DNA of 64,000 bases from an uncultured Planctomycetales bacterium (GCA_964592485.1 CAZQEY010000003.1:12218-76217), one strand, 5' to 3'. Numbered from the stretch's first letter, positions 1 to 35,202 are shown. Notes: a model not told the origin generated them from the sequence alone. Numbers and translations are program-made.

Positions 1-3000
1 GAGGAATGCGAGCAATTAGAGAAAGAATTTAAGGGATTTGAAGAAAAGTCCGGCGACTCGCGAAAAATTGAGATGGAATTTAGGGATGGCAATATAATTG
101 AGACTTCCAAATCCAGATATCATCTGTTAGAAAAGTTAACCGAAACCGAGAAATCCGTAGTCAATCAGATTTCTATGGAGATTAAAGGAATCAAGACTGA
201 GAGAGAAAAAGGAAAAATCTCCAGATCTTTAGGTGTATTTAGGGCTTCTCCCCCGATTCGTATTGTGCGTATTTTAAAGGCCTTAAGGATTCATCCCGGA
301 CAGAGGTTTCTTGATTTGGGTAGCGGCAATGGCATTGTTGTCTTTTTGGCATCGATATTATGTGGTGTCAGGGGAGTGGGTATTGAGGGGAACCCATATT
401 TATTTAATAAGAGTCGGCTTGCGCAGGAGAGATTTGAAAATGAAGGTACGCTTAGACACGGAGAGACAGAATTTATTTTGGGAGATTTCCTTAAAGAGGA
501 CTGGGACAGTTACGATATTATTTTCTATTATTCCTTTGGCAGCCATCAATCAACTGAGATTGAAGAGAAGGTTTTGAAGGAAGCCAAGATAGGTGCAAGG
601 TTTGTTGTCCTTGGTTCGCGGAGGTTTGCCTGGAAAAACTACAATAGATACGAGGATTTTAGTAGATTGATTAATTCCAAAGAATTTTCTTTCCAAACCG
701 AACCAGACCTTGGTGCCTGGATATTTACACGCCTGAATAAGAACGAAGGTAGCGACTTACAGGAGGTTAAGGAAACACAAAAATTAAAGGAAGCCCTTAG
801 TCGAGATTACAAAGCTATCGCCATTGACTTTGATGGGACAATCTACGATGCAAAAATGTCTAAGGAAGAGTTTGAGGAATTACTCGAAGTATTGGTGGAT
901 ATCTTAAAATCGGGCAAAAATCTTGCAATTGTTACTAGCGGTCGACCGGAATACGTAGAGGAACTTTTGGTTTCTAAGTTAAGGAGTCATCCACGGGTAA
1001 CAAAAGAAAACCTTAATCAAATCGATATTTATCATTCAGGAGGAGCCTCCGGATATAATGCAGCTACGGAGAAAGTGCATTATGAAAAAGAATTTCCTGA
1101 TGCATTGCGGCAAGAAGCTGCTCGCTTGTTTAGCGGTAATCCACATTTAACATGCGATGAGGCAGAGTGGAAATCTTATTTTAAGCAACCGAAATATTCT
1201 GACACCCTCGCTTTAGATGCTGATTCTCACCTCAGTTTCACTCTATATAAGATTACCTTAATTCCTAAAGATAAAGGTTTAATAGCGCAGTACCAAAAGA
1301 TATTAAAAGAGCTCGTTACTAAATACGGTCTTAATTTAAACGTAAAGGCAACAAGTATCGCAGTAGAAATTATTCCTAAAGGAGTGGGCAAGATGCTAGC
1401 CGTTGCTGATCTGATGAGGCGACTGAAGGTTGAGTCTAGCCAGATTGCTAAGATTGGTGACCGGGGTGACCCAGAAGGAAACGACTATGAGTTTCTAAAG
1501 GAAGAAGGTAGTTTCTCGGTGGATCAGTACGATCCAGCCAATCCCAATCAGATTTGTATACCCTTGATAAATGGATTACGGGGTCCTACGGCAACGTTAT
1601 GGCTACTTAGACGATTGGCAATAAATAATACATTAGCATCTAAGCAACCAGGCCTTGGTCCAGGCACTTGGGATAGTATTGTAATGCCCAGCGACCTTAT
1701 TGAAGTTCAAGTTTATGTAGATGATGAAGGCAGGGTTTTTGTTGAATATGATGGCCAGAGGCTTGAAGTGGCAAGAGTAGATAAGCCAAATGAGATATTT
1801 GGAATGAGTATCAGGAATTGGTTGAAGGAGAAAGGACTCCGCGCTGATTACGATGCTTTTACTGATGAAGAAAAAGGCAGAAAATTTAGCATCGGTAATG
1901 CACTACGCAGAAAAGCAAATAGAGGCCTGAGAAATCGAAACGGATTATATGAGGTAAGAGCAGAAATAGTGCGTTATATTAGTTGGGCAAAATCCGGGCC
2001 TCAGCCTACTTGGAGCAAGATGAATTCGGCGATGTATGTCGGTATGCCTTTAAGTAATCTAATCTATTGGTATGCCGAAGAACAAGTAGCTATGTTAAAG
2101 TTATTCGGCAAAAAGGCACTCCCAATAACTGACCACAAGAGAATGGCTTTCATTGATTGGGTTCAAGGATTGAGCTTCTGGGATTTACCCATCTGGCCAG
2201 TAACCGAATCAGGCCAAATTGATACGGGTTTAATAAAATGGTTCAATGTGCCCAAGATGCGTGCCCCGCCTGAATATTTCAAAGCAAAGAAAATCACCTT
2301 ACGAGAGTTCATTGATAAAAAACCGCAAGCGCAAGGGGTCGGCAGGTCAAATGATTCAACCAAAGGTTCTCCCGCCGATTGCCTTAATACTTTGTATAAC
2401 AATAAGAACTTTAAGGAAAATCCTGTCAGTGTAAATGAATTAGTCTCCCAAAGAGCCTATTCCCAAAGAGCCTATTCTGAAACCACCATCCGCGCAGAAT
2501 TAAGCAGTCTTATCGCCATAGGTCTGGTAGAGGTAGACAAAACTCAAAAGCCATACCGTTACTACTTAAGCGATATCTTAAAAAGAGCACCGCCTGAGAT
2601 AATTAAAGAAATCTGTGATTTACCTGAACTAAACCTCTATCAAATCCCCTCCCAAGAAATTCCTCAACTCAAAAATAAATTAACAGAAATATTAGAACCC
2701 AGCGAATTAGTATCGTTGAAGAGAAGAGTATTTAAGGATAAGGCTTTATCAGGTGAAATAGAAAGGATATTCGGTTCATACGATAATTTTGCTTTGGCTT
2801 TATTTAATCCTCAGGAGTTCCTTGAGAAGCACAAATCAGAAAGTGCCTTATTAGCAGAGTTAAGTCAATTCTTAAGCAGGTTATTGGTTAACAACGAGGT
2901 ATTGGGAGAGATTCCTGTATGCGAATTTCCCCTTGCAAGGGCCTATGTTGAGAGATTATTCGCTGCTACGGGATTAGTCCGAGGAAATTTAGATGAGCTT

Positions 3001-6000
3001 CTTTCAAACAGAGCTTTATATAAAGAAAACAGAGAAAATAACCTTGAGGCAATAGCAGATGTTTACGGGATAGATATGTGCCTCGTTACATACTTAGATA
3101 TAAGATATAGCGGCGTAACTATTATTGGAGAAAATGCCGGATTGGAGTTTGTAGTGGATGGGAAATATAGAACAGGCCGTTTTGTTCTAGGCGACAATAT
3201 TTACCTATTCACAAAACAGGTATTTTTAGGAGAATCCCCCTATGCATACAGCAAGGAGACGGGAAAGATATATTATTACGGGCAAGAACTGCCCTATAAA
3301 GTAACCCCCGTAGAGCAAAAAGCAGGCACATGGAGAAGTCCGACAACCGGCGCCAAGCATTGGTATTTTAAAATTAAATACTGGGAGAATGAAGCAGACA
3401 CTATAGATGAGGAGCAGTTAACCGATTATAGCTCGCTGACCTTAAATTTTAGAGACTTCTGTCTTAATATGTGTCCTTTCTGCTGGCGGGCATATAGAGA
3501 AGAACTGCGGGCTTTTGGAAAAGAACTGATGAGGCAAAAAAATATTACAGTTGACCAAGGTATAGATATGCTTAAGAAAGCCCATGGAAAGAATGTGCTT
3601 ACAAAAGTCAAAGAAATATCGGTTGTCCAAGCCGGATTCGTTAAAGAAGAAGAGGAGTTAGACTATTTAGAAGAATTAATTATTAAATTAAGGAAAGAGG
3701 GATTTAAGGGTAGAATAATGGTTTCTACAAGCTTCGTTAGAAATCCCAACGCATATGCCAGACTTAAGGATTTAGGTTACGATATGAGCGAGTATAATTT
3801 TCCCTTAGAAGCATTTACAAATAGAGAAACCGTTCTAAGCAGAAGAAAGGCTGCGCCTTTTAAGAAGGTATTGCGAACTTTAATTATAGCAAAGCAACAT
3901 TATAGAACCGTCAGGGTATGGCTTCTGGCAGGATTAGCGGATAATCTTAGAGATTACGAAAGATTTTTTGCAATCTTATCTAAGAACAAGATAGATGCGC
4001 AAATTGGTATGTATTTTCCAATGCTTCCAAGACAAATCGGACTTCTGTCAAACGATATGGTTCGCGATCAAGAAAATAACGGACATATTCGATTTTTGTT
4101 AGATGTAGTTCGGTTAGCTAATAGATATAGTATCGCAAGGCCGGAGAGCAGCAGAAATAATGCTATCTGGCCGGCGTATATGGACAGATTTATTTATCAG
4201 GATAGCATACTTTTGACTAAAAATGAAGTTTCATTCGGGAGAAAAGGTATTTTAACTCTAAAGAGATTTATTAAAAACGGAGATTTTATTAATAAAGATA
4301 GTTTACTTGCTCCGCTTCGCCGCGAGGTAGAAAAGCAAGGGAGGATACTGTTAGGTTCGATAGAAGGAAGACAGATTTATGCTTATGTGGGCAAAGAGTT
4401 CAAGGGAAGCTTAGTTGATATGATTCAGGACAGATTTGACGAGAAATATGGATGGATATTTGCTGCTTATTTAGTTGAGGCAAAAACAGGCAAAAGAGGA
4501 GAGATTCCTATTCGTATGTTTAGAATAGAACCTGATAAGCCAAATTATTTTGAGATTACAGACCCCACTGAAAAAAGGATGATTACTGAAGAGGGTGAAA
4601 TAGTTATAAGAAAGGACAAACTCGATAATTCCGGCAGCTTGAATAAGGGTAAACTTCCTCATCCTAAATTTTATCAATATCCTAATGCGGAAGTGGAATA
4701 CAAGGCTTTGGTTGTTGATGGAGAAGAAATTATCTTAGAGGTAAGAATATTCTGGAAGGGTGAAATTATCATTAAAAAACTTTCTACAGTAAGAGATAGC
4801 AAGACAAGAAAGTTGCTATTTTCTTTTATTAAGAATTTCCACAAATTCCATATTAAACAGCATAAAGACATAATCATCCGGAGACAACTGGATAAGCGTG
4901 CAAGATTGGATATTTTGGGTCAGATGCCTTGGACAGGTTTACCTAAAGGTCTTAATCTTGATTATGCTTGGGTAGATGTAAAAATTGAAGATGCCGGGAA
5001 GATAGTTGATGTGATGTTTATTGAGGATTCCCAAGGAAGGTCAGTGCTTAATATTAATGGAGAGCCTTTTAAGATAGTTATCGGTGAAAATCTTCAAGAA
5101 CAGTTATCTCGCATAGCGCCGCGTAAAGAAAGAAGAATCGGCGTATTTGATGCTAAAACAGATAAATTGATTGCTTCCTATGAGGAGATGAGTCCGGAGG
5201 AGTTAGCTTTGATTACTGAAGAGCAATACCTAATAATTAGATTAGGCAAGCGGGGAAGGCTGGCTATCGGTGGTAAAGACTGGGGTGATTTTCATCTATT
5301 TCCTGGTGCAAAGGTCAGGCTCATTTGTTCTGAAGGCAAGGTAAAGGTTGTTAAATTTATTGCTGATAGAGAAGGAAAACCGATTCTGGATAAACAAGGT
5401 AAAGCCTTAGAGATTAAGATAGGTGAAGATGTTTTGAAGCAATTGAGAGAGAAGCTACCTTATTTTCAAGTGCGCAGCACAAAAGAGCTTTTAAGCGCGG
5501 ATAGGGTTTATGCGTTGATTGAAATGCTTCTTAATCCAGAGATTGGCACAGAGACGAAAAAACATATCCATTCTCTTCTTAAGAAAGCAGCCGAAGATGA
5601 AAGATATGTTGATGAGTTTCAAAGCCTCCTTGAAGAACCAGAGAAAGTTTCGAAGGAAAAAGTTGCCGATACTGTTATTGTATTTTTGGATACGAAGGTA
5701 GGTAGAGGTTTAATATCTACGATAGAAGCAACCAACCTAAGGAGATTTGCTAAAGATGAGAGCGGGGTTTTAGAGGCGATTAAGATATATCTTAGCAGTG
5801 ACATGAGTGATGAGGCGACAAAGATAAAGATTAGGTTGTTTGGTGCTGCTCGCGAGTTTCCTCAAGAGATAAGTGATACTATAGAAAAGATAAGGTTACA
5901 AAAAGATGGCAAGCAAGTTATTAGAAAATTGGAAAGGAGCGCTGGAGGTGGAGTATTCTTTAATTTAATTAAAAATGGTTTAAGCCTAAAGGGTATCATC

Positions 6001-9000
6001 AATAACAATCGCACAAATTCAATTATGCTTTATTCGGCTATTCTTCCCCCACAATTGGCTTCGTGGATAAATAAGAGACTTCTGCCACTACTTAGAAATG
6101 CTGCCTTAACAGGAATTAAGTTTTTAAACTCCATTTTAGGCGAAAGAGAAAAGATTATAAAAGAGGGATCCGATACTGGCGAGCTTATGAATATTATTTC
6201 TCAAACAAAGGGACAGTTCAAACTTGCCCAGCGAGTATTAAACCTTATGGATATAGGGATTGTTACGGATTCTTCATTATTAGTTACTCAATTAATGGAG
6301 GCATTTTCTAAAGAATATGATTTGCCGGATACTGTAAAGTTATTATTCTCATCCCCATCTTTTATCTATAATTACTTTAGCAGATTATCTGAAGAAGAAT
6401 TTTATCCAAAATCAAAGGAGTTTTCCCCAAAGGACACAGCCTTGATAGTTGTAGATATTCAAAAAGATTTCTGCGAAGACAGGGAAGGCTTCGCTTACGC
6501 TAATCGTCAAAAAGCTAAAGCAAGGGATGATGTTTCCGCAATCCAATATATGATAAATAATAATCTTCTGCCTTTAATTGAAATGGCACGAAAAGTCAAT
6601 ATGCACACTCTCTACATTCAAGCAGATTATCGCCAGAGGCAATTTCCTGATATGCCCAAGCTATGCCTCAAAGGTACTGAAGGTTGGGAATTTTATAAAC
6701 TCTCACCGCAAGGAGAAAAAGAAGCAGTCTTTTCTAAGTCTACATATGACCTCTTCAGCAACCCACAGGTAATGAAATATCTTAAGCGGCATAATATAAG
6801 GAATATTTTAATTTCTGGTTTAACTACCGATACCTGTGTAAGAACATCGGCTATTAGTCCTTTAGCTAAAACCTTTAAGGTATATGTAATAGGTGATTGT
6901 GTTGTTACTGCAGGCTATAAGCTCTTAACTAAGCATCTACCAACTTTAGAATATTTTAAGGAGGCTACCTCTATCCCCAGACTTATTTTCTTGCCGAATA
7001 TTTCATTTTACACCTCATCTCGAAGCGGAAGCTGCGCGTCAGGTAAAATAAAAGGGATAATCGCCGAAGAGGTGAAAAAATTAAATGATGCAGGTCTTAG
7101 ATATGGTAATGAAGTAACCGAAGCGCTTTTAAAATTAGCAGAAGATTGGAATCTGGATAAGTTAAAGGAGGCACTTGAAGAGTCAAGAAGATATTCCGAA
7201 CAGAGAAGTCCGGCTCTTTTGGCAATGGAGTTACAAACGATTTCATCTCTGGCTCAATTAATAGAAAATAAAATTAAGCACTCCGAATCTGCCTCTACCT
7301 TAGATAATATCCTCCAAGATAATGAAGCAGATTGCTTAGGATATACACAACTTTTATGTATATTAGGGAAAGCTGTTGGCTTTAAAGTCAGTCCTGTAGA
7401 GATAAAAAATTTACTCCCATATTTCTCTGACCAAGCTATGTTGCATGTGTGTTGTCTATTTGAATTGTCAAATGGACAGAAAGTGATGGTAGATTTGGGA
7501 GTCGAGCCTACAATAATTAGCAGCGCCTTTGCAATGGATGAAGAATACGAACTCATTGATGGGACTGATTATTATGAGATAAGAAAGGAAAATAATCCTT
7601 TTAGGTTATATAGGAGAATTCGATTTTTGGGTTATAAAGGATTGGTATCAATACTTTACACTAATTTAGGGCTTGGCTTTGTTGATGAAGGAGAACTTTC
7701 TTTGGCGATAGGGTCTTACGATAAGGCAATCGACTTGGACTCCAGGAATGCCAGGGCATATTATAGTAGGGCTGACGCTAATGTTTCCTTGGGGAATGTA
7801 ATACTGGCAGCTTCAGATTTTGAAGAAGCAGTTAGATTGGACCCACGGGACGAGATGACCCATTGTAATTTGGGTAATATTAAACTTGCAGGTGGACAAT
7901 TAGGGGAAGCCAAGGCTAAATTTGACGAAGCCATCAATTTAAAGCCTGATTTTGCCTTGGCTTATTGGCTTCGCGGGAAAGTCCTTGAACAATTAGGAGA
8001 TGTAAGGAGAGCAAAGAAAGATAGGAATAGAGCTTTAAAGTTAGATTCTTCGCTATCTTCAAAAATTCAACCGCCTATTATTTCTAATGAAGTTTATATG
8101 AAAACCATCTATCTTCTCACTCATCCTTTTTATATCCTCCCTTCAGATATGATGGGAAAGTGGAAGAGATTTGTCGATTGGGTAGCCGAAGACCAAAAAG
8201 GTTGCTTAATCTTTGTTGCCCAGAATCAAGCTCCTTTTAAAACCTCCGTTTTAGAAACTGAACTAGCAAATTATGCCTCGGATAAATTAGGAAAAAGATT
8301 CATCTTAGTAAGAGAATTTAGCGAGCAACTAAGCAAGGAGATTAAGGCTATTGGTAACTTCAATCCCAAAGAAGTAAGAATTAAAAGCATTGGTCAATTG
8401 ACCAATATTTGCGTTAGAATTTATACTCGCATTTTACAGGAAAAATTAAGGATTCCTACGGAAAATGTCGAGATATTAAGGGAGATTCCTCAAGAGGTAG
8501 AGACAGCTGAAGGGCAGACGCTATCTTCTGAACAAGAAGCAACGCCAGAGATTATAAAGAAGTCAGCGTTAATGAAAATAAAGAAGTTTATGGTTCTACC
8601 TGGCATTCGCACCTTCATAAAATATCAGTTGTATGTTTTACTGCCTCTTATAGGATTAGACCTGCTGTCTAAATTACTTATTCAGCATTTTGTTCCGGAT
8701 ATCATGACGCTTGCTCCCGGCGCTCAGTTGGACTTAGGTCTGTATAATTACCCCAGTTTAGGACCGTTTTATTTCTTCCCTATTTATCATACACAGCCGG
8801 GTATTCTTGAGAGTATTTTTGGACCTCAAGCCTATTTTAGCTCGCCACTCTTGCTTATCCCTGTATTTGCTCTTTATATCTATGTCCAAGTGCGTTGGTT
8901 ACATATTTGCTTCCAGGATTTCCTGAAGAATCAGAATCACAGATTTAGATTATCATACGCTTTGCCGTCTGTACTTATAGCTGGCGTGTTGGGCAATATG

Positions 9001-15000: not shown

Positions 15001-18000
15001 ACCTATAATGAACAAAAGGCAAACGAGGTATTACTTAAATATGGATTTGATGTACGGATTAATACCGAGTCTCACCCACTGCCTAAAGATATTAGTGACA
15101 TTAATCCATTACTTAGGGAACAAATGCCTTCATATCATAAATACCTTGTTGTTAAAATTGCTGGTTATGACTTTGTTATTGATTTAACCGCCGACCAATT
15201 TGAGCCGATTAAAAAAGATGTATACCGCAATTTGGGAGTAGTGGTCATTCCATACAGTATTGTTCTAAATAATTCTGAGAGATTCTGGATGTATCTTGGT
15301 GGGGTGCATAATCATGTAGAATGGAATCAAGGAAAGGATTTCTCACTTCCTGACTCAGCAGAGGCACACTTTAACAAAAATAGTAGAGGAAAGAAGCAAA
15401 ATAAATTTAGTTTGACAAAACCAGTTGGAATAGATTCCTTGAGAGAAAGATTAAGAAAAAGATTGGAGAACGATTCGCTATACTTATTGACCGGCGATAT
15501 GGCAGAATGGGGAAGAGAAGAATTCGAAAAAGTCGAGAAGATGAGCAAAGAAGAAATTCTTAACGAGGCTACCCGGCTAGTAAGAGAGATGGGGTACCTT
15601 GACTTTGATGCTTCTCAGATGCTTAAGCATAAAGCGGGCGTTCAATTACTATGGGATGATATCCTTGCTCAATCTATATTCGCGCTGGATTCCTTGGGTG
15701 AATTATACCAGAGGGAAGAGGCAGGGGTGTCTGATGAAACAAGGGGAAAAATAGAAACAACCACTAAACGGTCAGTATATAGACATGAAATCTTAATCAG
15801 GGCCTGGAATATTGTTATTGAGTCGCAAGATACTAATATATCTAAAGGTGAAGGGGTGCTTAGTTTAGAGCTCCATGATGAGGTTAATGAGGTTGTTAGA
15901 ACAGCTTGGAATGAGAAAGAAGGCAGAATTGCTTGGGGAGAGAGTACTGATTGGCCAAAGGCAGAGGAGGATGGGATTGCTAAGGCAAATGGGGCTGTTG
16001 CAATTTTAAAGGAGAAAGATATAAAAGTAAAACTGCCTAATAAACTGGGTAAGCTAAAATTAGCAGAAGAAATAGAGACAGAAGAGGCAGGGAAGAAAAT
16101 CAATGTTATTTTTATTATAACACCTGACCAATCTGCTGCGCTTATCTTGAAGGGGCCCTATACCTATCAAGTCTCCCACGCAGGAGTGAGGTACAGTTCC
16201 ATCTACATCGCTCAGCCATTTTATAAAGAACTTACTGAGAATGAGCTCGCTGGTCTCATCGGCCGCGAAATAATAGAGCAATCTGCCAAGAGAATTGCCC
16301 GAGAAAAAGGCATTCCTTGGAGTGATTCTCTTGCCAAGGCAGTAGAGAAAGCGGCTCAAAAAGCGGAGATTAAACTTTGTGGCAGGAGTGTCAATAGTAG
16401 AGAAAGAAGTCGAATAGACGATAAGATAGATACAATAGTCCGCTTGCCTTCACTTAGGGTATTGGCTGAGAAGGCCAAGATGCAGGAACCAGAGAAGATT
16501 CAACCTATTCTATTTATGGCTCTAAGGGATAGGTCTCCTCTGTTGCGTGATGAGGCAAGACGGATTTTAACTGAGATATTTGGTATGGAGGAGAAAGACC
16601 TCAGGTTAGTAGAATACAGGAAATTGTTAAGACCTATGGACCTCAATATCTACTTTAATCTTAGATATAGCGATGGTGGCAGCGGTCTTAAGGCAGGAAA
16701 ATATTTTAAAGAACCCAAGTTTAAAGGACTGGCATTAGTTATTCCTATGGGAGGCCGTAAGCCCCTCAGGCCAGATACTGGAGAACGCGCTATTTTAGTA
16801 GCAGAGAAGGAAGTAACGATAGGTGGGCGCAGGCTAAAGGCAAGGGTTTATAATTTTGTTTACCGATATAGTGATTCGGTAATTAATACGCCTTTCATTC
16901 CTCCGCAGGGGTCTCACCTGTGGGACGCCGAGCATGCGACAGTATTCACTGATGAGAACGAACAAATCGTGAAGGTAGAAACTGGTTATCACAACAGTTT
17001 CTACCTCTATTATCCAAAGGCTCTCCAGTTCGATGCTCAGGGCAGACTCTTGGTCTTTAGTGCCGCGGGTTCTCAGGGCTCGGTAGCAAATACGCGGGAT
17101 TTTATTTTTGACCTTGATAGCGCCAGAAGTAACTTCCGGAACCCCCAAGTTTTCTGCAGCGAAGATTATGCAGTGAGTTTAGGAGAAATCGACTTCTCTC
17201 TGGCTTCTGATGATGGGAGGCATTTTACCAATACCGATATTCTCCTGCCGCCATTCAAAGAGTATGTCCTTAATCCGGAATCGATAAAACCCACGGCTGA
17301 ATTTAAGAGACTAAGGAGAGCGACGATAAAAAAATGGATTCTCATTTTGCGTGCTTCTCTGGATTCCCTGCTGCGTCCATTAAGGTCCCTTGCGAAAAAG
17401 TTTTCTGGGCAGGGGGCTGAGGGTGAGAGAAAGCTCCAGGAGCAAGTCCTGAAGGCATTAAGAAAGGAGAGCAAAAAGGCAACAGGAACAGAAATGTTAA
17501 GCCTGTCAGAAATTGCAAGCAGGGCAGGTATCTTGGGTTACAAGCCTGTTGAGCGAGTTAGGGAGGCTGTAAGGGCCCTTATGTCTGAAGGGTTGGTTAT
17601 AGAGGTAAAGGTAGGCGGAAAGAAGGGATATTATCTCAAAGGAGCTAAGAAGCTCATTCCCTTAAAAGGCTCAATAGCAGAGTATATATTGCTTTTGTGG
17701 AAGTTCAGAGACGAGCTGAAAGGTAGGGCAATCTTGCAATCTGAGCGAGAGAATAATATTATTGGCGATAAGGTAATAAGTTATGAGACCGCCAAACAAC
17801 TAAAAAGAGCCTTGCAGTTATTGGATTTGCTTGATGAGAAGAATAAAATCACCGCTAAACTCCTGAGCATTACCGAAGAACAAATAAGACAAATCCCCAG
17901 TATCGATGAATTAAATAGGTCGCCTCTAAGAATAATCAACTTAAAAAAGCATAAAAACTCATTTGATAAACTTACCCAGCGTATTGATGAGCTATTAGGA

Positions 18001-21000
18001 GCGGATAGCAATCTTTCAGAAACAGCAGAATCAGATGCTCAATTAAAGAAGATTGCCGAGGCAAAACCCTTTTATATCTTTTATAAAGATGGCAGGTTCC
18101 ATCTCGAAAAGTTAAATCTGCCAAGCTGGAGGCGCGATAAAGATTATATAGAACAAGGGGAAGACCTTTTAGGTCGCCCTTTTGGCTTAAGAGGCATTGC
18201 CGATTTCACTAACGCATTTTTTAAGGAAAATGTAGAGCCATTTTTAAAAGAACATACTCTTCCTCCCTTGGGGGATTATTTAAAAGGAGAGGATGTGTTA
18301 ATCCTTGGCAGCGGCGCCAATATATACGAAGTCCTTTACTTTGCAGAGAACTTCCCGATGATAAGGAAAATAGTGGTTTGCGACTGGAGTAAAAGAGGTA
18401 TTGCAGGCCTCTATCACCTTTTATCTGGGTATCCGGCGGAATTCAAGGAGAAGGTCGAACTTTATTGCATAGATATTAAGAATACACCCTTTCCTTCGGG
18501 AAGGTTTAATCTAGCCTTCGCCGATAATACCCTTAGTCGTGATTTTCAATCAGCGGAAGCACGCAGCGAGATGATTAGAGAGATCTCTAGGATATTGAAG
18601 CCCGGGGCCATATTCTCCCCATGGGCAGTTTTACCTCCGTATAATATTGAAGCCTTATGTCAGGAAAATGGCATTGACCTTGTTAAGGTAGATGAAAAAA
18701 GCGGAGATTTTGTTGGTATAAAGGCAGATATGAATATGAATAGGGCTGCGAAGAATGTCTCCCGCAAATGGCCGCAGAGGGTTCCGGAGAAAAGGAGAAG
18801 TAAATATGTTAACCAGCCTGCTTATGAATATAGAGTGGTAGATGGCTCTAGATTGCAAAGACCAATACAAGATGAATCAATAAATCTGTCTCAGAAAGGG
18901 CTTAGAATAAGAGAAGACATTTTAAAAAGATTCTTAGAGTTAATAACCAGAATTGCTTATCCTAATGCTCCTCCGTTTACCTTAAGCATTGACCCCTCAA
19001 TTCCTACCTATGCTCAAACAGAAATAGAAAATAGAAAGGTTATTCTACACCCTGCGTGGTTTGAATTACCCACTTTCAAACAATTCATAATTCTCTATCA
19101 TGAAATAATCAGCCATCTTAAAAAACAGATATCTTCAGAATTCCTCGCCCTCATCCATACATTCTTAAGCTTGATTCCTTTTGGGATACTCAGGTTAGCA
19201 ATCCAGATGATGAGCGTGAGGAAAAAGGAAGAAGTTACCGATTATGAATTGACTAAGATTACTGCAAGAGCAGATGAGGCCGCAAAGTTTATTATCGACC
19301 ATAATTTTATGAGTCTTAATAAGGTAAGATATCTTCTGGCAATAGGAGCAATGTTGCCAAAAAATAATCAAAAGAGAAGGTGTCTATATATTGCCTCGGG
19401 AGGAGATTACTCAACAAGTCAAATAGTATCCAAAGCTATAGAAACTATTTGTATAGATAGGCTTCCTTTTGAACCATCAGAAGGGTTATCTGAAAGAAAA
19501 TTAAATTCCTATAGAAAAGCATATCTGAAGAAAAGATATTATGGAAACTTTGCTTCTTCAAAACGAGGCGCCAGAAGTTCATTATTAAGAGAGATAGGAG
19601 CTAAGCAATATTTACTCTGGGAGCTCGAAATGATGGGCGCAAGAGAAATTGTAGTAGTATCTGATACTGATACTAAGATAAATAGAATCAGTTTCCTGCT
19701 TCCCGGAGAATCAATAGAAAAAAGCATTATTTATCTTGAGAAGGACTTCTGCGACATAGAGGCAAATCCGCAGACATTAATTGCCCTTATTCAGAAAGGA
19801 TTGGATTCCTGCATTTTGAAAGCCTCTGACGGATTACGCATATCCGGTCCAATTGCCGATATGATAGTTACTCACATGAATCCAGGAGGAATGTTCTTCT
19901 TGGATAGAGCTACTTTTGACCATCCTAATCTTGAAGAAATAGACGAGAGAAGAATGAAGGAGATTAGGTATTTTGAAGGTATGGGTTATGCCTTTGGGTA
20001 CCATAAAATTTCCTTAAAAGTTGCTAATCGCTCTAAGGATGCGGACAGCAGTCCTTCAGAGGTAGGAGAGTCAGATGCTCAATTAAAGAAGATTCCCGAG
20101 GCAAAATCCTTTGGCGGGATATCACCGCTAAGACAAAGACAGTCAGAAGTTGCGCAGCAGAGCAAGAACGATTCAAAGCGTAACTTCTGGAGAATAGTTA
20201 AGAAATTACTGCCTTTCATTCTGTTGCTCCCGATTATGCCTGGTTTAATGGTAAATACTTCAGGCGCAGAAGAATCTAATTCAGTTCTAAAAGACAGTTC
20301 TGAACTGGCAAGATCAGCAGACAAGCTAGCCAAATTGCTTTATGAGTTAACCGGTATAGAAAAGGCCATCTGGCAAAGGGCATTGAGAAAATTTACCATT
20401 GAAGAGATTACTCTGTTAAGCAGGAGGATTAATTCTCACGGCCTATTTAATTCTTTATTAATCCTTTTCTGTTTGGATAATTATATCAATGAAGAAAAAT
20501 ATGAAACAGAGGAAAATGAATCTGTAGGGGCTTTGGTGCTGGTGTTAAATTATTTCACAGAAAAGGATATTGAAAAATTTATTCTTGAGAAAGAGCATAG
20601 AGAAGATTTTGAACAGGTTAAGCGCTTATATATATGGGATCAATGGGAAAGGATAATAAGCGGAAGATACAGTGAACAATATACCTCTGATGAAATTGCT
20701 AGGGAGAGTGGAGTAAGGCAGGATATTATCAAGCGTTATAGAGATTTAATTCGAAGGCATATTTTGCGGATGCAGAAATTTGATTGGGCTGTTGGCTGCA
20801 GGGAACGCATTCGCGCCGAGGGCAGACTTAGAGGATGGAATGAAGAGCAACTGCGAACAGAATTAGGGATTATCCATAAGGGGGTTACCGGCTGGACAGG
20901 CAGAAGGATTTGGCCTGTTTACGTTAAAAGAGCTGCTGAGATATTTGGGAAAGAAGTCAGCTTCTTAATGTACGGGGAAGCAAAATCAGTTTTATTCAAG

Positions 21001-24000
21001 GGATTACCCTTTAATAAGCGGTTTGAGCTATTAAGATACGAAAAGGGTTTAACCCGCGAGGAGTTAGCAGGACAACTTGAGATTGCTACTGATAAAGTAA
21101 TCTCTTGGGAAAGCGCAAAAAGCAAGCTTAGCCTTGAAAGCATACGCTTATTATCAGAGAAATTCAATTTAGAAGTCAGCGAGCTTATCTATGGTTTAAA
21201 GCGAGCCGAGGCATTAAAGATATTTCCACTTGGCAAGCGCATCCAGCTGTTAAGGCTTGAGAAGGGATGGACCATAGAAGAGCTGGCAGTCAGATGCGGG
21301 GTTAGTCCCTCAACAGTGAATCGCTGGGAACGGGGGCCACGAGAGCCTCTTCCTGAAAATATACAGGCCCTAATAGGAGCTTTAGGGGATGAACTTTTTG
21401 GTAGAGAATTGAATAAATCTAAAAAGAGGAAGGAGGCTACTTTACCGCAAAGAAGAGACGGGTTGAATCGAAAAAATACAAAGAAAAGGATAATCCTTAC
21501 CAACATAAAGATAGGAGTTGTCAAAGAGATTATTGAGGGTGAAAAGAGGGTGGCTCTTACGCCAAGAGAAGTAGAGATTCTGGTAGGAGAGGGTTTTGAT
21601 GTTACTGTTGAGGCTGGAGCAGGTCAGGCTTGCGATTTTTCCGATGAGGACTATTTAAAGGCCGGCGCTAAGATAGGGACAAAAGATGATGTATGGAGCA
21701 AGGATTTAATTGTTAAGGTAAAGGAACCGCAAGAAGAAGAGATGCAGTTTATCAAGAATGGCCAGATTATATTTGCTTTCTTGCATCTGGCAGCGCCGGT
21801 AAACAGAATCTTAACCGAGACTTTCATGAAAAAGGGAGCAACTGCAGTCGCCTTTGAGACTATAGTAAAAGAAGAGAAAGCGCCGATTTTGGCAGAGATG
21901 AGCAAGATTGCTGGGCCCCTGGCAGCAGAGCAAGGGCAGTTTTATTCCAAGAAGGAAAAGAGCAAATTCATAATCTTAGGCGGCGGGGTAGTGGGTCAGA
22001 ATGCAGCTGAACGAGCCAATCAATTAGGTAATGAGGTAATTATCATTGAACTGGATGCGCAAAGAAGAAAGGAACTCAGGAGCTATTTCCGGTCAAAAAG
22101 GCTCAATATTATTGTTAAGGAATCTTGGGCTGATGCGAAGAAAATTGCGCAAGACTTATTCAGGGACTTACAGAATGCAGATGTGATTATCGGAGCGGTT
22201 TATAATAAACAAGGTTCTCAGGCGCCGATTTTAATTGATGAGGAACTTCTTTCAAGGCTAGGTGGAAGTAAGGTAATCGTTGATGTCTCGGTGGACCAGG
22301 GCGGGAATATTTATGGCTCAAGGCCAACCACTCTTGAGGAGCCGACCTTTATCGATAAATATGGAAATATACGCTTCTGTGTCCGTGATATACCATCTTT
22401 GAAGGCAAAAGAGGCTTCGATTGGTTTAGCGGCAGCTGTTCTTCCTTATGTTAAGGCTCTGGCAGCCACAGGATTAGAGGAGGCAGTTAAGGATTATCCT
22501 GAATTAACCGAGGGGATTAACATTCTTCAAGGCAAACTACTTAACAGGGCTGTTGCCAAAGCACATAATTTTAGCGAGCAACTAAATTTGGATCTTGAGG
22601 GGTTTGGGCTTGACTTGCGGATAAAGATTGGCACAAGCCAGGATTTAAGATGGGATGCCAAGTTAGATTTAATCAGAGATTATCAGCACCTGGAAAATCT
22701 TATCCTGGACCCGGCAAAAAGGATTTTCTGGGTAGATGACCATCAGTTTTCAGCCCTTGGTGCCTGGCTGGCGCTGAGATTGGGTTGGATTAAAAAGAAA
22801 AGCAAGGCGATTATTATTGATTCGCATTGGGATGTTAAGAATCCAGACTTTAAACCAAAGAAAGATGCCTCATTAGAATACTTAAGCGATTATGTAAAAC
22901 GGTTAAATATCAATAATTGGCTGATGCCTTTAGTTTATGACGGAGTAATTGATGAGCGAGAGATTTATATAATTGATAACAGGGTTTCGGAAGAGCCACT
23001 AACCCAGACTTTTAAATATTTTGATAAGGATATCAATATTCACATGTTTAATCTCGCTAATTTCCCAATGGAATTATTAAAAGACACACCGCAGGATCAA
23101 TTGATGTTATTGATTGACGCTGATAAAAATACACCTGATTATTACCTGGACCAACTTTCCCCCTTGGTAGATTCACCGGTTGAATTTGCTTCTAAAATGA
23201 GGCCCTTTATGGAAAAGGCTGGTTTTATGAGTCTATCCCTAAGTCCTTATTGGATTAACCCCGTAGATGCCTTGAATTTCGCCTATGCTTTAGATGGAAG
23301 AGAAGACTTATTGCTTGAGGATGAGGCACGCTTGAAAGAATATAAACGCATTGGTTACAGCCCTCATATAAAGATGGATTGGGCTACCCATGGGATGTTG
23401 GAACAACCCGATGCGTTTCGGCTAATTGTTTCCCGGTTCGGTATAGGTTCACTTTCTAGATATGGATTGAGGAGATTGAAAAAGCTTTCCAGGGTCAAAG
23501 GGATAGGGAGGATACCGCGATTCGAACTATGGGCATACTTAGATTGGTATACGCCGGAGGAGATAGGCGTGGTACTTAAGAACTATGGACCCGAAGGGCT
23601 AATTAAATATTTTACTGCCCAGGATAAGAAGTCGTATCAAGTCTGGGAAAACCCATTTTATAACCCGGAAGATTTCACTCTTGTTGCTCAACCAGGTGTG
23701 GCATCGTCATTCCCCGCCCTTGCCAGATTGGTGAGACAATATCGAGCAACCAAGGCACTCCAACCAGAGGAGATTAGCCCGGAGCAGATTATCTCTGGAC
23801 ATAGGGGTAGGCAATATCGGGTATTTTCTAAGCTTAGAGATGAATCAGAGAGGGGGGCTAACAGTGATATTTATTTGGCCGTGGATTTAAAAACCAACAG
23901 AACAGTTATCGTGAAGGAAACAAAACCGAAGTTTAAGGGTAGAGGGATTCGTAGTGAGCGCTGGATAGCGGATGAACGGCGAGCCCTGCATAGGAATAGG

Positions 24001-24552
24001 AATAATCCTTACACTGTCAGATTACTGGATTGGAATCTTGATGAAGAGTTTCTCATCCTGGAGTATATCGACGGGTATTCACTCGAAGAAGTCGGCATGG
24101 CATTGAGAGAGTTTGGGGCGTGGACCAATGAACATATAATTGAGCTTCTACTGGCCGTGCGGGCAGTCGGAACCGCGCTGCTGTATACAGCCCGAACCTA
24201 TGAAACTCAATTGACAGATGCGTCAGGTCCCGGGAATAGTATGTTAACTTGGGAAAGTGGAGCAGTTAAGTTGTGTGATTTTGAATATGCCTTTCCCGGA
24301 CGATACCCACCTAGTCTCGGCTGGCAAATAGGACATATGCTCTATGATATAGTTACGGGACAACTCATTTATGATAAATTTATCCCTGTTCGCTATTTGA
24401 CACCGGGGGTTCCTGAAGAATTGAATAAGTTGATTTCTGACTTAATCGGAGTGAATCCAGAAGGCGTTGTTGATGTGGGTTACACCCCGAGAAACCAAGA
24501 GGCGTTCAAGAAACTCGATGAAGCCATTGCCGCTTTGCACGATAAACGATAA
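1..24552 (+). CDS. Giant multidomain protein (at least 8,159 aa from first in-window ATG at 73; frame is open back to position 1, so the gene may be 5'-truncated by the window edge). Modular enzyme/regulator fusion, see domain entries.
   Basis: Single uninterrupted ORF of 24.5 kb in frame 1; codons 1-72 upstream of first ATG contain no stop and read as charged coding-like sequence ([24 protein letters not shown]); multiple recognisable catalytic motifs along its length; stop TAA at 24550-24552. Confidence 0.85.
   Translation, partial: [8183 protein letters not shown]
220..600 (+). other. Domain of giant ORF: class I SAM-dependent methyltransferase (motif I [9 protein letters not shown])
   Basis: Glycine-rich motif I [11 protein letters not shown] followed by acidic residue and motif II/III spacing typical of Rossmann-fold MTases. 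Confidence 0.6.
815..1500 (+). other. Domain of giant ORF: HAD-superfamily hydrolase/phosphatase
   Basis: HAD motif I [9 protein letters not shown] (DxDGT) and motif IV [12 protein letters not shown] (GDxxxD) about 210 aa apart; [10 protein letters not shown] resembles motif II region. Confidence 0.6.
2443..2472 (+). repeat. Perfect 15-nt tandem duplication CAAAGAGCCTATTCC x2 inside giant ORF (encodes [10 protein letters not shown])
   Basis: Read directly. Confidence 0.8.
3400..4150 (+). other. Domain of giant ORF: radical SAM core (CxxxCxxC)
   Basis: CLNMCPFC at nt ~3460-3483 = canonical CxxxCxxC 4Fe-4S/AdoMet binding motif, followed by ~220 aa with alternating beta/alpha pattern; no other cysteines needed. 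Confidence 0.45.
6425..6960 (+). other. Domain of giant ORF: isochorismatase/cysteine-hydrolase family (nicotinamidase PncA-like)
   Basis: [12 protein letters not shown] (catalytic Asp region) and [14 protein letters not shown] (catalytic Cys in G-x-C motif) separated by ~120 aa, as in isochorismatase family. Confidence 0.6.
7650..8050 (+). other. Domain of giant ORF: TPR repeats (about 4 units)
   Basis: Repeated 34-aa units with W/L-G-Y-A-F-A-P pattern: [16 protein letters not shown]..., [16 protein letters not shown]..., [16 protein letters not shown]..., ALKLD. Confidence 0.55.
8570..9140 (+). other. Internal hydrophobic block of giant ORF: about 5-6 predicted transmembrane helices
   Basis: Long hydrophobic stretches ([61 protein letters not shown]) flanked by positively charged residues; implies giant protein spans the membrane with domains on both sides. 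Confidence 0.5.
9700..10130 (+). other. Domain of giant ORF: SAM-dependent methyltransferase module (copy 1 of an internal paralogous pair)
   Basis: [15 protein letters not shown]...VVIVDW...ELYCLDI...LKPQGIF; recognisably homologous to module at 18285-18640 ([15 protein letters not shown]...IVVCDW...ELYCIDI...LKPGAIF). Confidence 0.55.
10285..10900 (+). other. Domain of giant ORF: carbon-nitrogen hydrolase (nitrilase superfamily)
   Basis: Glu-Lys-Cys triad context: FLCLPEYYF (Glu), GKHRKVNL (Lys), IAVLLCKDV (Cys) with typical spacing (~75 and ~35 aa). Confidence 0.5.
18285..18640 (+). other. Domain of giant ORF: SAM-dependent methyltransferase module (copy 2 of internal paralogous pair)
   Basis: See 9700-10130; both copies are preceded by a conserved LPSW...DFL/DYI segment. 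Confidence 0.55.
20990..21380 (+). other. Domain of giant ORF: two tandem XRE/Cro-C1-type helix-turn-helix domains
   Basis: [34 protein letters not shown] and [33 protein letters not shown] match the HTH_XRE pattern (xLRxxxGLSQxxLAxxxGVSxxxISxxExG). Confidence 0.6.
21505..22530 (+). other. Domain of giant ORF: alanine dehydrogenase / pyridine nucleotide transhydrogenase alpha (AlaDH/PNT) N- and C-terminal domains with Rossmann GxGxxG
   Basis: [38 protein letters not shown] (AlaDH_PNT_N signature) then [13 protein letters not shown] (NAD-binding) and [11 protein letters not shown] (AlaDH C-terminal region). Confidence 0.65.
23800..24420 (+). other. C-terminal domain of giant ORF: protein-kinase-like fold (atypical; DFG replaced by DFE)
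   Basis: VIVK (beta3 Lys), ERRALH (alphaC Glu), [11 protein letters not shown] (hinge), [12 protein letters not shown] (catalytic loop D...N with one extra residue), VKLCDFEYA (DFG-like). Confidence 0.45.
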
Positions 24553-24583: not shown

Positions 24584-24618
24584 CAGAGACGTTTTCCGGT
24601 TCAAACTGGAAACTGCAC
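24584..24618 (+). promoter_or_regulatory. Hairpin motif X1 of a 6-copy family (CAGAGACG-TTTTCC-loop-GGAAA-CTG)
   Basis: Stem TTTCC/GGAAA closed by CAG...CTG, 32 nt after giant-gene stop; same architecture as leader motifs A, C, D. Confidence 0.4.
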
Positions 24619-24632
24619 CTTCAAGCACAGCG

Positions 24633-24672
24633 CAGAGGCAGTTTCCCGATTGGGGTGGAAAGCGTCTGTAAA
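24633..24672 (+). promoter_or_regulatory. Leader motif A: CAGAGGCAGTTTCCCGATTGGGGTGGAAAGCGTCTGTAAAGAG, 20 nt upstream of membrane-protein gene
   Basis: Near-identical copy at 25334-25375 (motif C) and related copy at 25908-25950 (D); stem changes compensate (TTTCC/GGAAA; TTTCCCG/CGGGAAA; UUUCC/GGGAG with wobble) suggesting RNA hairpin in 5'UTR. Confidence 0.45.
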
Positions 24673-25950: not shown

Positions 25951-26085
25951 GGGTGAGGCAGGATGGGGGAATAAGTGTTATTGGGTTAGGCAGCAAGGCA
26001 GCGACTATAGATAATTGCGTTGACTTGCTGTGGAATTTATGTTAAATTAACAAAGTTAAAGTCACGGAGAAAAGGCAGGTATTCC

Positions 26086-26415
26086 ATGGAAAATAATAAT
26101 TCAATTGATCGGCGCGCATTTGCCCGAATCCCCGCCGCACTCTCGATAAGATTTTTGCCTTCAGGAAGGAGAAAAAAATGCCGGGGACAGACAATAGATG
26201 TTAGCGCTACGGGCATAGGTTTGCTGAGTAAGAAGAAGCTTACTCCTCGGACATCATTAGAGATGTGGCTGGATTTACCGCATAACCGGGGCCCCTTTTA
26301 TACGCGAGGAGAGGTCGTCTGGTCTGACTCATTGACTGATGCACCCGAATATCGCGTTGGCGTTTGTCTGGAGAGAGCTGAACTTATGGGTTTAGCGCCA
26401 GTATTGTGGAAATAG
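26086..26415 (+). CDS. PilZ-domain protein (c-di-GMP receptor family), about 109 aa
   Basis: RRAFARIP (RxxxR) and TIDVSATGIGL (DxSxxG) motifs with canonical ~25 aa spacing; SD GGAGAAAAGG upstream of ATG at 26086 (track ORF begins 26020 with non-ATG start). Confidence 0.7.
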   Translation: MENNNSIDRRAFARIPAALSIRFLPSGRRKKCRGQTIDVSATGIGLLSKKKLTPRTSLEMWLDLPHNRGPFYTRGEVVWSDSLTDAPEYRVGVCLERAELMGLAPVLWK

Positions 26416-28903: not shown

Positions 28904-29508
28904 AGATACTGCCTTTTGGTTGCATTTTAATTTTCTGTTTGACTATACTTTCTTGTACTCAGGAGCAGGATTTATTAATCGATGATTTTGAGAATCCGCT
29001 TTCTGGAGGCACGGACGGCACAGTGGATTTTGGCTCTGGTGGTAGTTCATCAGTAGAAGTAACAGCAGATACTGATATTAAGTATTCGGGTAATCAATCT
29101 ATGAAGATAGACTATAATGCTGCACCAGGCGGGTATATGTGGGTAGCAAGGGGGTTTGATTTAGATGCAAAGAATACACAATGGTTAATTGAACCACAGG
29201 ATATAGACTGGGCTAAATATAGTTCCATATCCTTTTATATGTACGGTAGCGATTCCAAAGCAAAGATTGCATTTGATATCAAAGACAATGGTAATGAGAT
29301 GTGGCGGTTTATGATTGAGGATGATTTTAAGGGTTGGAAGAGGATAGTCTGCCCTTTCAATGAATTCTTCGCTCGGAGTGATTGGCAACCGAATAATGCG
29401 GACAGAAACGCTACCTTAGATTTTCCAGTCAAAAGCTTTCAGTTTGAGCCTCAGTCAGAGGCAAAAGGCACAGTTTACTTGGATAATATGATATTGATGA
29501 AGAGATAA
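28900..29508 (+). CDS. Lipoprotein with CBM-like beta-sandwich domain (CBM4/9-like; ends VYLDNMILM)
   Basis: Signal peptide plus lipobox LTILSC; domain shares W-x-G and terminal YLD(E/N)I motif with the two repeats of the 35400-36554 protein; start overlaps upstream stop (ATGA). Confidence 0.55.
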   Translation: MKILPFGCILIFCLTILSCTQEQDLLIDDFENPLSGGTDGTVDFGSGGSSSVEVTADTDIKYSGNQSMKIDYNAAPGGYMWVARGFDLDAKNTQWLIEPQDIDWAKYSSISFYMYGSDSKAKIAFDIKDNGNEMWRFMIEDDFKGWKRIVCPFNEFFARSDWQPNNADRNATLDFPVKSFQFEPQSEAKGTVYLDNMILMKR

Positions 29509-29556
29509 AAAAGCTTTGTTTAGCTTGAGAAGAATGATTGGTTATTGGAGGAGAAG

Positions 29557-31751: not shown

Positions 31752-31830
31752 ATATTTCGTTTAGTCGGTTTTGTCCGTTTAACAGAAATAACGGAATTAA
31801 CGGACCTACCGGAAATAATGAAATAGACAA

Positions 31831-35188: not shown

Positions 35189-35202
35189 CATAATAACTTA
35201 TG

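Follow-up and report, generated by a model that had tools for sequence, protein, structure and literature searches.

Can a single bacterial gene run for more than 24 kb, read like a chain of unrelated enzymes and still be a real gene, and if so, what kind of protein does it specify? The question is raised by a 64,000-nucleotide stretch of DNA, referred to as the window, that is recorded under an uncultured Planctomycetales bacterium (GCA_964592485.1, CAZQEY010000003.1:12218-76217) and whose first 24,552 bases are occupied by one giant open reading frame (ORF). A preliminary description had read this ORF as a giant enzyme-fusion protein and had suggested a membrane-tethered assembly line of a new kind. 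Giant ORFs of more than 20 kb are widespread in the classes of Omnitrophota (Seymour et al. 2023, PMC10066038), and it is an unsolved puzzle how and why polypeptides of 10^4-10^5 residues are made by so small and host-dependent a cell, and whether they function whole or in pieces. The analysis set out here indicates that the giant is, with high probability, a mosaic, membrane-anchored, multi-enzyme protein of a class already described from Omnitrophota. As this architecture has been on record for the phylum since 2023, the present gene adds an example to a kind already known, and a specialist would know it as a typical Omnitrophota giant gene.

With amino acid (aa) positions counted from window base 1, and with the parts described between bases 1 and 35054 lying on the plus strand, frame +1 is open over bases 1..24552, comprising 8,183 codons and a single terminal stop at 24550-24552; reading from the first in-window ATG at position 73 (73..24552) gives 8,159 aa. 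This one stop compares with 666, 807, 488, 297 and 550 stops in the other five frames over the same bases. Codon usage in frame +1 follows that of ten downstream housekeeping genes in each 3-kb tile (r = 0.73-0.88, vs 0.21-0.43 off-frame), the GC content is even along the length of the ORF, and no competing ORFs of at least 150 aa were found inside it. The giant ORF is a genuine coding sequence, and the uninterrupted 24.5 kb frame open to position 1, as first described, is borne out by the stop counts and the host-like codon usage. An artefact of an alternative genetic code was considered and rejected, as under table 11 recoding shortens ORFs and does not lengthen them. Because the frame is open to base 1 and no convincing Shine-Dalgarno sequence or ribosome-binding site precedes ATG 73, the ORF, of at least 8,183 codons, is likely truncated at its 5′ end by the window, and it very probably continues upstream.

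The host is indicated by the glutamine synthetase gene of the window, whose product GlnA is 94, 88, 87 and 82% identical to Candidatus Omnitrophota contigs from metagenome-assembled genomes (MAGs) and single-amplified genomes, its top matches being nearly all Omnitrophota. On this one marker gene the window is assigned to Omnitrophota, in agreement with the lineage first guessed at.

At least 15 different, independently recognisable modules are carried on the one polypeptide, drawn from at least 12 distinct Pfam families of which the most repeated (methyltransferase and helix-turn-helix, HTH) occur in two to three copies. Domain calls were made with Pfam (E <= 0.01), NCBIfam and PDB sequence searches; weaker matches are given below with their E-values. 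The predicted enzyme set consists of three to four S-adenosylmethionine (SAM) methyltransferases, a HAD phosphatase, a radical SAM enzyme, two cysteine amidohydrolases (one of the isochorismatase type and one of the nitrilase type), at least one papain-like thiol module, a complete alanine dehydrogenase (AlaDH), two kinase-like domains and a UPF0489 domain, with TPR and winged-helix or XRE HTH modules interspersed among them.

From the visible N-terminal end, the first of these is a DOT1-like class I SAM methyltransferase (aa 88-226, 262..678; PF08123, E 7.7e-8) with DLGSGNG at 105, a region that also matches the PADLOC mad2 methyltransferase region (2.9e-13). It is followed by a HAD-IIB phosphatase (aa 273-501, 817..1503; Pfam E 1.7e-9) with DFDGT at 276 and GDRGDPEGND at 486, and by the first copy of a winged-helix module (aa 782-899, 2344..2697), which is recognised by its similarity to a second copy and to the relative P0001 and gives a weak Penicillinase_R match (Pfam E 0.064). 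The radical SAM domain (aa 1149-1311, 3445..3933; PF04055, E 8.7e-9) has CLNMCPFC at 1154. Self-similarity reveals an internally duplicated unannotated domain (aa 1597-1707 and 1715-1820, 4789..5460), beyond which lies the isochorismatase-family cysteine amidohydrolase (aa 2146-2304, 6436..6912; PF00857, E 8.9e-24, together with PDB, NCBIfam and motif evidence), with the Asp in VVDIQ at 2150 and the Cys in TDTCV at 2276. A possible transglutaminase-like Cys/His module (aa ~2412-2500, 7234..7500) had been suggested at about 7320-7520; the Cys/His pattern is present (DCLGY at 2444, LHVCC at 2481), but the Transglut_core match is weak (E 0.07, aa 2412-2463). A TPR array (aa ~2541-2686, 7621..8058) is recognised by Pfam (E 1e-18) and by PDB sequence search.

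The second winged-helix copy (aa 3048-3174, 9142..9522), identified by self-similarity and through the relatives P0001 and P0004, is 33% identical to the first (E 1e-12 in self-comparison). It precedes the first copy of a methyltransferase (aa 3186-3371, 9556..10113; PF13649, E 1.1e-12), which is paralogous over ~190 aa to a second copy (aa 6015-6205, 18043..18615; Pfam), with 39% identity (E 8e-39) and Methyltransf_25 matches at aa 3284-3368 and 6111-6202; the paralogy proposed for this pair is thereby upheld. The nitrilase-superfamily CN hydrolase (aa 3440-3653, 10318..10959; PF00795, E 4.5e-13; PDB 1j31 and 3ivz) has Glu in LPEYYF at 3443, Lys in HRKVNL at 3519 and Cys in LLCKD at 3552. The third methyltransferase-like motif noted near 12810, GAGEG, falls in a Methyltransf_28-like module (aa 4258-4400, 12772..13200; EWGAGEG at 4276) whose Pfam match (E 2e-4 to 1e-3) is below the family cut-off, although a homologous stretch is found in P0004. 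A possible third winged-helix module (aa 5800-5930, 17398..17790) is called tentatively from its alignment with copies 1 and 2 and an RPA_C match (E 0.012), and an unannotated module (aa 6458-6686, 19372..20058) is 32% identical to P0004 340-564.

Towards the C-terminus, two XRE/Cro-type HTH domains (aa ~7005-7064 and 7077-7129, 21013..21387; Pfam HTH_3, E 2e-19) are similar to each other and give PADLOC HTH_VI matches in two stretches. The L-alanine-dehydrogenase-type domain that follows (aa 7170-7524, 21508..22572) is complete, with both the N and the C domain of AlaDh_PNT at 7172-7515 (~1e-40), a full-length alignment to the PDB alanine dehydrogenase 2eez (E 2.6e-58) and all of the motifs EKRVALTP, VKVKEP, FLHLA, GGGVVG and VDQGG; against TIGR00518 it scores 261 bits, the equivalog cut-off being 391.85. 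A UPF0489-like domain (aa 7575-7652, 22723..22956; PF12640, E 7.8e-6, 26.8 bits vs a cut-off of 27) has DSHWD at 7607. For the Ser/Thr-kinase-like domain proposed at the C-terminus (aa ~7937-8099, 23809..24297) there is some, weak support, from a Pkinase match (E 5.9e-4 at 7951-8097) and from the kinase region of NCBIfam LanKC/LanL (~1e-6).

A motif check found the predicted catalytic signatures retained in the HAD, radical-SAM, isochorismatase, CN-hydrolase and AlaDH modules. The roles assigned to individual residues (Asp and Cys in the isochorismatase; Glu, Lys and Cys in the CN hydrolase; Arg, Lys, His, Asp and GxGxxG in AlaDH) are those usual for these families. It had been allowed that profile searches might expose the motif matches as spurious and the protein as a conventional repeat adhesin; Pfam instead confirmed nearly all of them, including the methyltransferase, HAD, radical SAM, isochorismatase, TPR, CN hydrolase, XRE HTH and AlaDH/PNT calls. 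The HExxH reported at 19099-19116 did not survive, as it reads HEIISH, that is HExxxH, and has no profile support. None of the giant's enzyme domains passes an equivalog cut-off in NCBIfam and can in that way be assigned to one particular pathway.

Repeat-rich giant adhesins (Ig-like, cadherin, RTX, Bap) are built from tandem arrays of extracellular domains, whereas the present protein has only a few paralogous modules in two copies, among them, by self-BLAST, the unannotated domain pair and the two HTH_3 domains. Tandem Repeats Finder returned only two trivial 2-copy repeats in the gene, and Pfam at E <= 0.01 found no Ig, cadherin or other adhesin family and no lectin, dockerin or lytic domain in the ORF. 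The polyketide synthase (PKS) and nonribosomal peptide synthetase (NRPS) megasynthases are likewise multi-kilobase ORFs encoding chains of catalytic domains; unlike these, the giant has no KS, AT, ACP, C, A or T/PCP domain or carrier domain at E <= 0.01 in Pfam and NCBIfam, and no collinear conserved module order. The initial statement that neither adhesin repeats nor PKS/NRPS hallmarks are present is accordingly sound. As a side observation, PADLOC gave partial matches to three components of the MADS system, the mad2 methyltransferase (2.9e-13), the mad1 HTH (1.9e-5) and the mad6 kinase (4.6e-5), at aa 71-242, 7077-7139 and 7951-8030 (211-726, 21229-21417 and 23851-24090). A reading as an anti-phage defence system was rejected, these being partial, generic domain matches whose co-occurrence was judged curious.

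The membrane segments of the giant amount to about six helices. Four of them form a block (aa 2881-3039, 8641..9117) that resembles signal peptidase II (LspA), matching Pfam PF01252 (Peptidase_A8) over profile positions 3-140 of 142 with E 8.5e-5 and 23.2 bits, against a cut-off of 25; the multi-pass membrane block first noted is in this way given a helix count and a resemblance. The catalytic Asp residues of LspA lie in the motifs GNxxDR and FNxAD, and both ends of the enzyme are cytoplasmic. In the giant these positions read GNMVSP and SHLAD, the first catalytic Asp being absent, and because of the GNMVSP the block is unlikely to function as an LspA. A PDB sequence search with the block gave chance matches only, so that the LspA-like call rests on the sub-threshold Pfam profile match, and the block is at best LspA-like in fold and topology, a putative four-helix anchor. 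Its flanks are rich in Lys and Arg (+4 before helix 1 and +6 after helix 4, from hydropathy and charge), and this charge distribution suggests an N-in/C-in orientation. Hydropathy predicts two further helices, at aa 6379-6403 (19135..19209), directly after HEIISH (aa 6367-6372), and at aa 6733-6753 (20197..20259), the latter with a basic N-flank and an acidic C-flank. From the Pfam domains and the hydropathy, the picture of an enzyme-fusion giant with embedded membrane anchors and HTH domains is retained.

Homologue searches with aa 1-5000 and aa 4601-8183, which together cover the whole giant, returned four proteins at E <= 1e-10, all of them long ORFs and all mosaic, partial relatives; no collinear orthologue was found among the searched collections, and profile scans of genome and metagenome contigs with the N-terminal 600 aa gave no relatives. 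Two of the related ORFs, P0001 and P0004, begin at contig ends, and P0003 (Omnitrophica) is annotated as partial. In P0001, residues 286-652 match the AlaDH of the giant (7171-7524, 47% identity), 1466-1576 its winged helix (784-898, 55%) and 1763-2255 its HAD block (260-774, 57%), so that the order is AlaDH, winged helix, HAD, whereas in the giant HAD precedes the winged helix and AlaDH lies far downstream. In P0004 the same modules stand in two swapped blocks: its residues 340-564 correspond to the unannotated stretch 6458-6686 (32%), 888-1271 to AlaDH (7167-7526, 42%), 2008-2244 to the Methyltransf_28-like module (4252-4482, 26%) and 4090-4396 to a module referred to as A (4574-4885, 55%). 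P0003 is 35% identical to aa 1419-1734, the wider region around the duplicated unannotated domain, the AlaDH module recurs in P0045 with 35% identity, and P0059 (3,148 aa) has only module A in common with the giant and diverges completely after it. Across the Omnitrophota giant fragments, module identities to the giant range from 25 to 58%.

The same pattern is seen at a larger scale. HMMER with aa 4480-5679 against 1.84 billion representative proteins gave 54 hits, which form three separate modules, A (4524-4932), B (4926-5107) and C (5269-5518), and none of the 54 spans two of them. Those long hits that carry a name are without exception partial ORFs from Candidatus Omnitrophica/Omnitrophota, and their NCBI labels ('ArsR family', 'winged helix-turn-helix', 'sigma-70 family ... 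partial') indicate that HTH-type modules recur in these giants. The comparison of domain order that had been proposed for related genomes thus yields no collinear relative, single modules being shared in differing orders, and the modules of the giant are, by these alignments, a shuffled set exchanged among Omnitrophota giants. Next to related giant fragments lie further long ORFs: one of 1,599 aa with a PGK domain on the P0004 contig (L081, 18300-23099), and on another contig one of at least 2,126 aa (L082, 8974-15351) with a winged-helix module 53% identical to aa 788-899, so that large mosaic genes seem to cluster.

These relatives bear on two other explanations. In an ordered biosynthetic assembly line the modules would act in sequence on one tethered small molecule or peptide. 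In favour of this, the radical SAM, methyltransferase, amidohydrolase, kinase-like and dehydrogenase domains are of the types that serve as tailoring enzymes in clusters for ribosomally synthesised and post-translationally modified peptides (RiPPs) and other natural products. However, Pfam recognises neither carrier or tethering domains nor domains for condensation or precursor recognition, each relative found differs in the order and content of its modules, HTH and TPR regulators stand among the modules and no enzyme domain attains the NCBIfam equivalog cut-off. The missing carrier domains, and relatives in which single modules are ordered otherwise, argue against this reading, which is very unlikely; the suggested assembly line is disfavoured, and the giant cautions against reading domain chains as ordered assembly lines in general. 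It is even less credible, to the point of being extremely improbable, that the gene is an assembly chimera or a decaying fusion of once separate genes kept open by chance. The want of a collinear orthologue in the public collections searched would fit such an origin, as would modules of degenerate appearance (the GNMVSP of the LspA-like block, a His-to-Arg change in module C and the weak kinase). Against it, 8,183 stop-free codons cannot arise by chance where other frames hold 297-807 stops, composition and codon usage are uniform, the motifs of the five catalytic modules named above are intact, and the phylum has many comparable genes, which complete genomes from long reads confirm (Nielsen & Lui 2026, 10.64898/2026.06.07.730766).

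The class to which the giant is assigned has been described in two steps. Enzyme-rich 'Archaeovorin' giants, with methyltransferases among their domains, were described in 2023 (West-Roberts et al., 10.1101/2023.11.21.568195); their domain set comprises glycosyltransferases, glycoside hydrolases, peptidases, SAM methylases and NUDIX, most full-length giants have a divergent SecA_DEAD domain, and the type protein, from Velamenicoccus archaeovorus, has 39,678 aa. A catalogue of 916 long proteins has since defined a 'multi-enzyme metabolic cluster' class (Nielsen & Lui 2026, 10.64898/2026.06.07.730766), in which methyltransferase, HAD and radical-SAM domains co-occur and 94% of the members are membrane associated; the sequences in the catalogue are mostly unique, yet architecture types recur. 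The present protein resembles this class, in its form with transmembrane (TM) helices as the only topology feature, in belonging to the same phylum, in having many Pfam families tiled with none dominating, in its methyltransferase, HAD and radical-SAM content, its TPR/HEAT-type scaffolding, its sparse TM helices and the glycoside-hydrolase genes nearby, and one multi-enzyme giant of the catalogue has signal-peptidase-II-like content as well. It differs in that the catalogue threshold is 10,000 aa, whereas 8,183 aa are visible here of an ORF running off the window, in its TM density (~6 helices in 8,183 aa vs roughly 1 per 400-500 aa in the class), and in its isochorismatase, nitrilase, AlaDH and XRE-HTH modules, which the 2026 paper does not mention.

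With the Archaeovorins the giant has in common its Omnitrophota origin, SAM methyltransferases, TPR, TM helices, much unannotated sequence and the genes on its 3′ side. Downstream of Omnitrophota giants, small pilZ homologues are followed by solute-binding proteins, transporters and glycoside hydrolases (West-Roberts et al., 10.1101/2023.11.21.568195). At the present locus a PilZ-domain protein of the cyclic di-GMP receptor family (26020..26415; PF07238, E 2.9e-12) stands between the giant gene and a carbohydrate locus in which domain searches identify GH94, a CBM11 protein, a sugar-binding protein, two ATP-binding cassette (ABC) permeases and a GH2-like hydrolase (26459..35054). A type II/IV secretion or pilus cluster upstream is typical of Archaeovorin-type giants (West-Roberts et al.); this feature of the known giants would lie outside the window, which begins inside the giant gene. 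Unlike the Archaeovorins, the visible 8,183 aa contain no glycosyltransferase, glycoside-hydrolase, NUDIX, GGDEF or SecA_DEAD domain by Pfam at E <= 0.01, though such domains could lie in the unseen 5′ part, and the protein is smaller, as far as the window shows, than that set of more than 30,000 aa, the N-terminal C39/S8 region falling outside the window. On its visible content and size the protein cannot strictly be placed among the Archaeovorins. The published giant ORFs, Archaeovorins and multi-enzyme class, together with the matching PilZ/ABC/glycoside-hydrolase neighbourhood, do not bear out the 'new kind' first proposed. What is added to the record is the permutation of modules between giants, a predicted kinase-like fold for module A, a conserved thiol-enzyme candidate and two recurrent junction peptides, and the giant offers a clean, tractable example in being comparatively short and in having intact-looking modules suited to assay (AlaDH, the amidohydrolases, HAD and the methyltransferases). 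In a separate observation, a PilZ gene also lies directly 3′ of the related fragment P0004 (L081, 16318-16662).

How such a protein might operate can be sketched as follows. The giant would be anchored in the inner membrane by the four-helix LspA-like block, both ends of which would be cytoplasmic, with another helix or two in support; the cytoplasmic face would bear the HTH domains and most of the modules that depend on SAM, NAD, ATP or Fe-S, and these may function individually as enzymes and regulators, expressed together and brought to one place, with no ordered pathway. The locus, with PilZ, a sugar ABC importer and glycoside hydrolases, may tie the giant to the surface and nutrient-acquisition programme proposed for host-associated Omnitrophota. 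This cytoplasmic hub is offered tentatively, as a mechanism standing somewhat below an even chance, and the combination of class membership with the hub is regarded as reasonably probable. Several points weigh against the interpretation as a whole. The N-terminus is outside the window, and the signal peptide, C39/S8 peptidase and SecA-like domain common in full-length giants are not visible, and three domain types that mark the Archaeovorins, namely glycosyltransferases, glycoside hydrolases and NUDIX, go undetected by Pfam in the visible part. Some half of the protein is without an assigned fold, and the gene is known here from its sequence alone. The topology is an estimate from hydropathy and charge, and the charge bias of helix 6733-6753 would place the C-terminal 1,430 aa (HTH, AlaDH, kinase) outside unless helix 6379-6403 spans the membrane.

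The last of these points is also one on which a different view of the giant draws, namely that most of it is exported and acts as a surface or secreted predation and attachment factor on the envelope of host or prey cells, a role proposed for Omnitrophota giants at large. Besides the helix charges, which could put the C-terminal part outside, and an N-terminus, the site of any signal peptide, that lies beyond the window, this view has the neighbourhood of GH94, CBM11, GH2-like hydrolase, sugar ABC importer and PilZ to commend it, a context of the type that led to the predation hypothesis (10.1101/2023.11.21.568195; 10.64898/2026.06.07.730766). An exported factor is nevertheless unlikely: the visible modules depend on cofactors of the cytoplasm (SAM, NAD(H), ATP and an Fe-S cluster sensitive to oxygen), DNA-binding-type HTH domains are among them, no adhesin, lectin, dockerin, glycoside-hydrolase or lytic domain is found in the ORF by Pfam, and the LspA-like block is predicted to be N-in/C-in.

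Within the mosaic, membrane-anchored protein, three conserved modules have no family assignment. Module A (aa 4560-4907, 13678..14721), the best conserved of these dark modules, has no Pfam match and no meaningful PDB sequence match even with a 9-sequence profile. An AlphaFold2 model from the 9-sequence alignment reached a pLDDT of 79.5 and a pTM of 0.82, an earlier model from two sequences (pLDDT 40) having been discarded, and on this model module A is newly assigned to a predicted kinase-like fold, as an atypical protein-kinase-like domain whose catalytic activity is putative. The protein-kinase-like superfamily is marked by a bilobal fold with a conserved beta3 Lys, a catalytic Asp/Asn and a metal-binding Asp; among the nine sequences of module A the invariant residues are limited to Gly, Pro, Glu and Asp. 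A homologue search with the module-A alignment returned one protein, already part of the query. Outside Omnitrophota, module A is a stand-alone unannotated family of ~370 aa in Deltaproteobacteria MAGs (the P0021 cluster, ~373 aa) with no Pfam model, and its members are a candidate new kinase-like family. Module B (aa 4921-5115, 14761..15345) keeps C4999, H5046, D5061 and ADQFE in at least eight of nine homologues, a pattern pointing to papain/transglutaminase-like thiol enzymes, of which it is a candidate, and gives a weak Tox-PLDMTX match (Pfam E 0.044); the Tox-PLDMTX match of P0036 falls outside the region that this protein has in common with the giant. Module C (aa 5266-5521, 15796..16563), recognised from its homologue alignment, has GREIIEQSAK in the giant where homologues have AHEAIELGAK. 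Pfam on stand-alone homologues of the three modules found nothing within the regions common with the giant, and hidden Markov models of A, B and C found no further hidden copies within it.

Two short peptides recur at module borders with unrelated flanks. The first, RRVWHYSGGQEARE (aa 3779-3792, 11335..11376; second copy aa 4914-4927, 14740-14781), follows the pattern RR[VI]xHYSxGxEAR, which occurs twice in the giant and also in the Omnitrophota proteins P0005 and P0059. The second is a 24-aa linker, ADSNLSETAESDAQLKKIAEAKPF (aa 6001-6024, 18001..18072; second copy aa 6681-6704, 20041-20112), whose two copies are identical at 62 of 72 nucleotides. Both are candidate processing sites, and they raise the prospect that the giant is a self-processing polyprotein, cleaved at conserved junctions to give enzymes and regulators of ordinary size, either through papain-like modules of its own or through a peptidase in the unseen N-terminal part. 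The Cys-His-Asp triad of module B kept across nine homologues, the one or two further Cys/His modules that may exist, the stand-alone module A of Deltaproteobacteria and the suggestion of proteolysis for such giants by West-Roberts et al. (10.1101/2023.11.21.568195) are in keeping with this. Each motif, however, recurs only twice and could be a remnant of duplication or recombination, the thiol modules may just as well act on other substrates as transglutaminases or deamidases, and Pfam recognises no autoprocessing domain (CPD, C39, S8 or intein) in the visible part, the proposed cleavage being putative. MARTX and other multi-effector toxins and viral polyproteins are comparable in being long single chains of unrelated catalytic modules, with module exchange and cysteine-protease-like modules; they differ in that the giant has no RTX-type repeats, CPD autoprocessing domain or visible secretion signal, and several of its modules, such as AlaDH and radical SAM, are cofactor enzymes of the housekeeping type, for which export as effectors is implausible. 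Self-cleavage of the giant is on balance improbable. More doubtful again is a further version, in which a recombination-shuffled precursor would have RR[VI]xHYSxGxEAR and the ADS...SDAQLKKI.EAK.F linker as cleavage or docking sites; were it true, the Cys-His-Asp modules would use these sites at the membrane to free or re-sort enzymes and HTH regulators in varying combinations, a bacterial 'polyprotein operon' in place of gene-by-gene regulation in these reduced genomes.

The remainder of the window comprises the 3′ side of the giant gene and an ordinary chromosomal segment. In the intergenic stretch immediately downstream (24600-26020) lies a 619-bp tandem duplication that is 85% identical. 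It contains two ORFs for small, paralogous membrane proteins, one after the other (24692-25264 and 25395-25832); in the first, the start region is itself duplicated internally over 84 nt. A conserved 53-nt element (CTTC..CAGTTTCCCGATTGG..GGAAAGCGTCTGTAA) occurs three times, at 24619, 25316 and 25895, each copy lying upstream of a small ORF, the PilZ gene included; it has no Rfam match, as is the case for the whole window, and a promoter and terminator scan 3′ of the giant gene gave nothing above chance. The wider carbohydrate-utilisation locus extends over 26459-41771, its GH94 being of the cellobiose/chitobiose-phosphorylase type, and also holds two unannotated ORFs (one weakly GH72-like), a TPR protein, a coiled-coil protein and a LacI-family regulator.

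The other genes of the window are typical chromosomal ones: class II ribonucleotide reductase, iPGM, NadE, Lrp, an aminotransferase, GlnA, Rex and an MBH/Mrp-type hydrogenase. The NAD synthase (45817-46533) is of the short, NH3-dependent type, 238 aa without a glutaminase domain, and glutamine synthetase is likewise encoded downstream of the giant, which itself carries two ammonia-releasing amidohydrolase types and an alanine dehydrogenase; the relation may be coincidence. A common 'ammonia/NAD' theme of amidohydrolases, AlaDH, NadE and GlnA was judged unsupported and set aside, because module sets are shuffled among relatives and NadE and GlnA lie 21-24 kb away amid unrelated housekeeping genes. 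The hydrogenase genes form a membrane-bound, Mrp-linked [NiFe]-hydrogenase-like cluster at 50656-63327, with NuoH, NuoD/NiFe, MbhD/E, MnhE, antiporter-type subunits and ferredoxins, in which a PhoU-domain ORF (56130-56747) is embedded.

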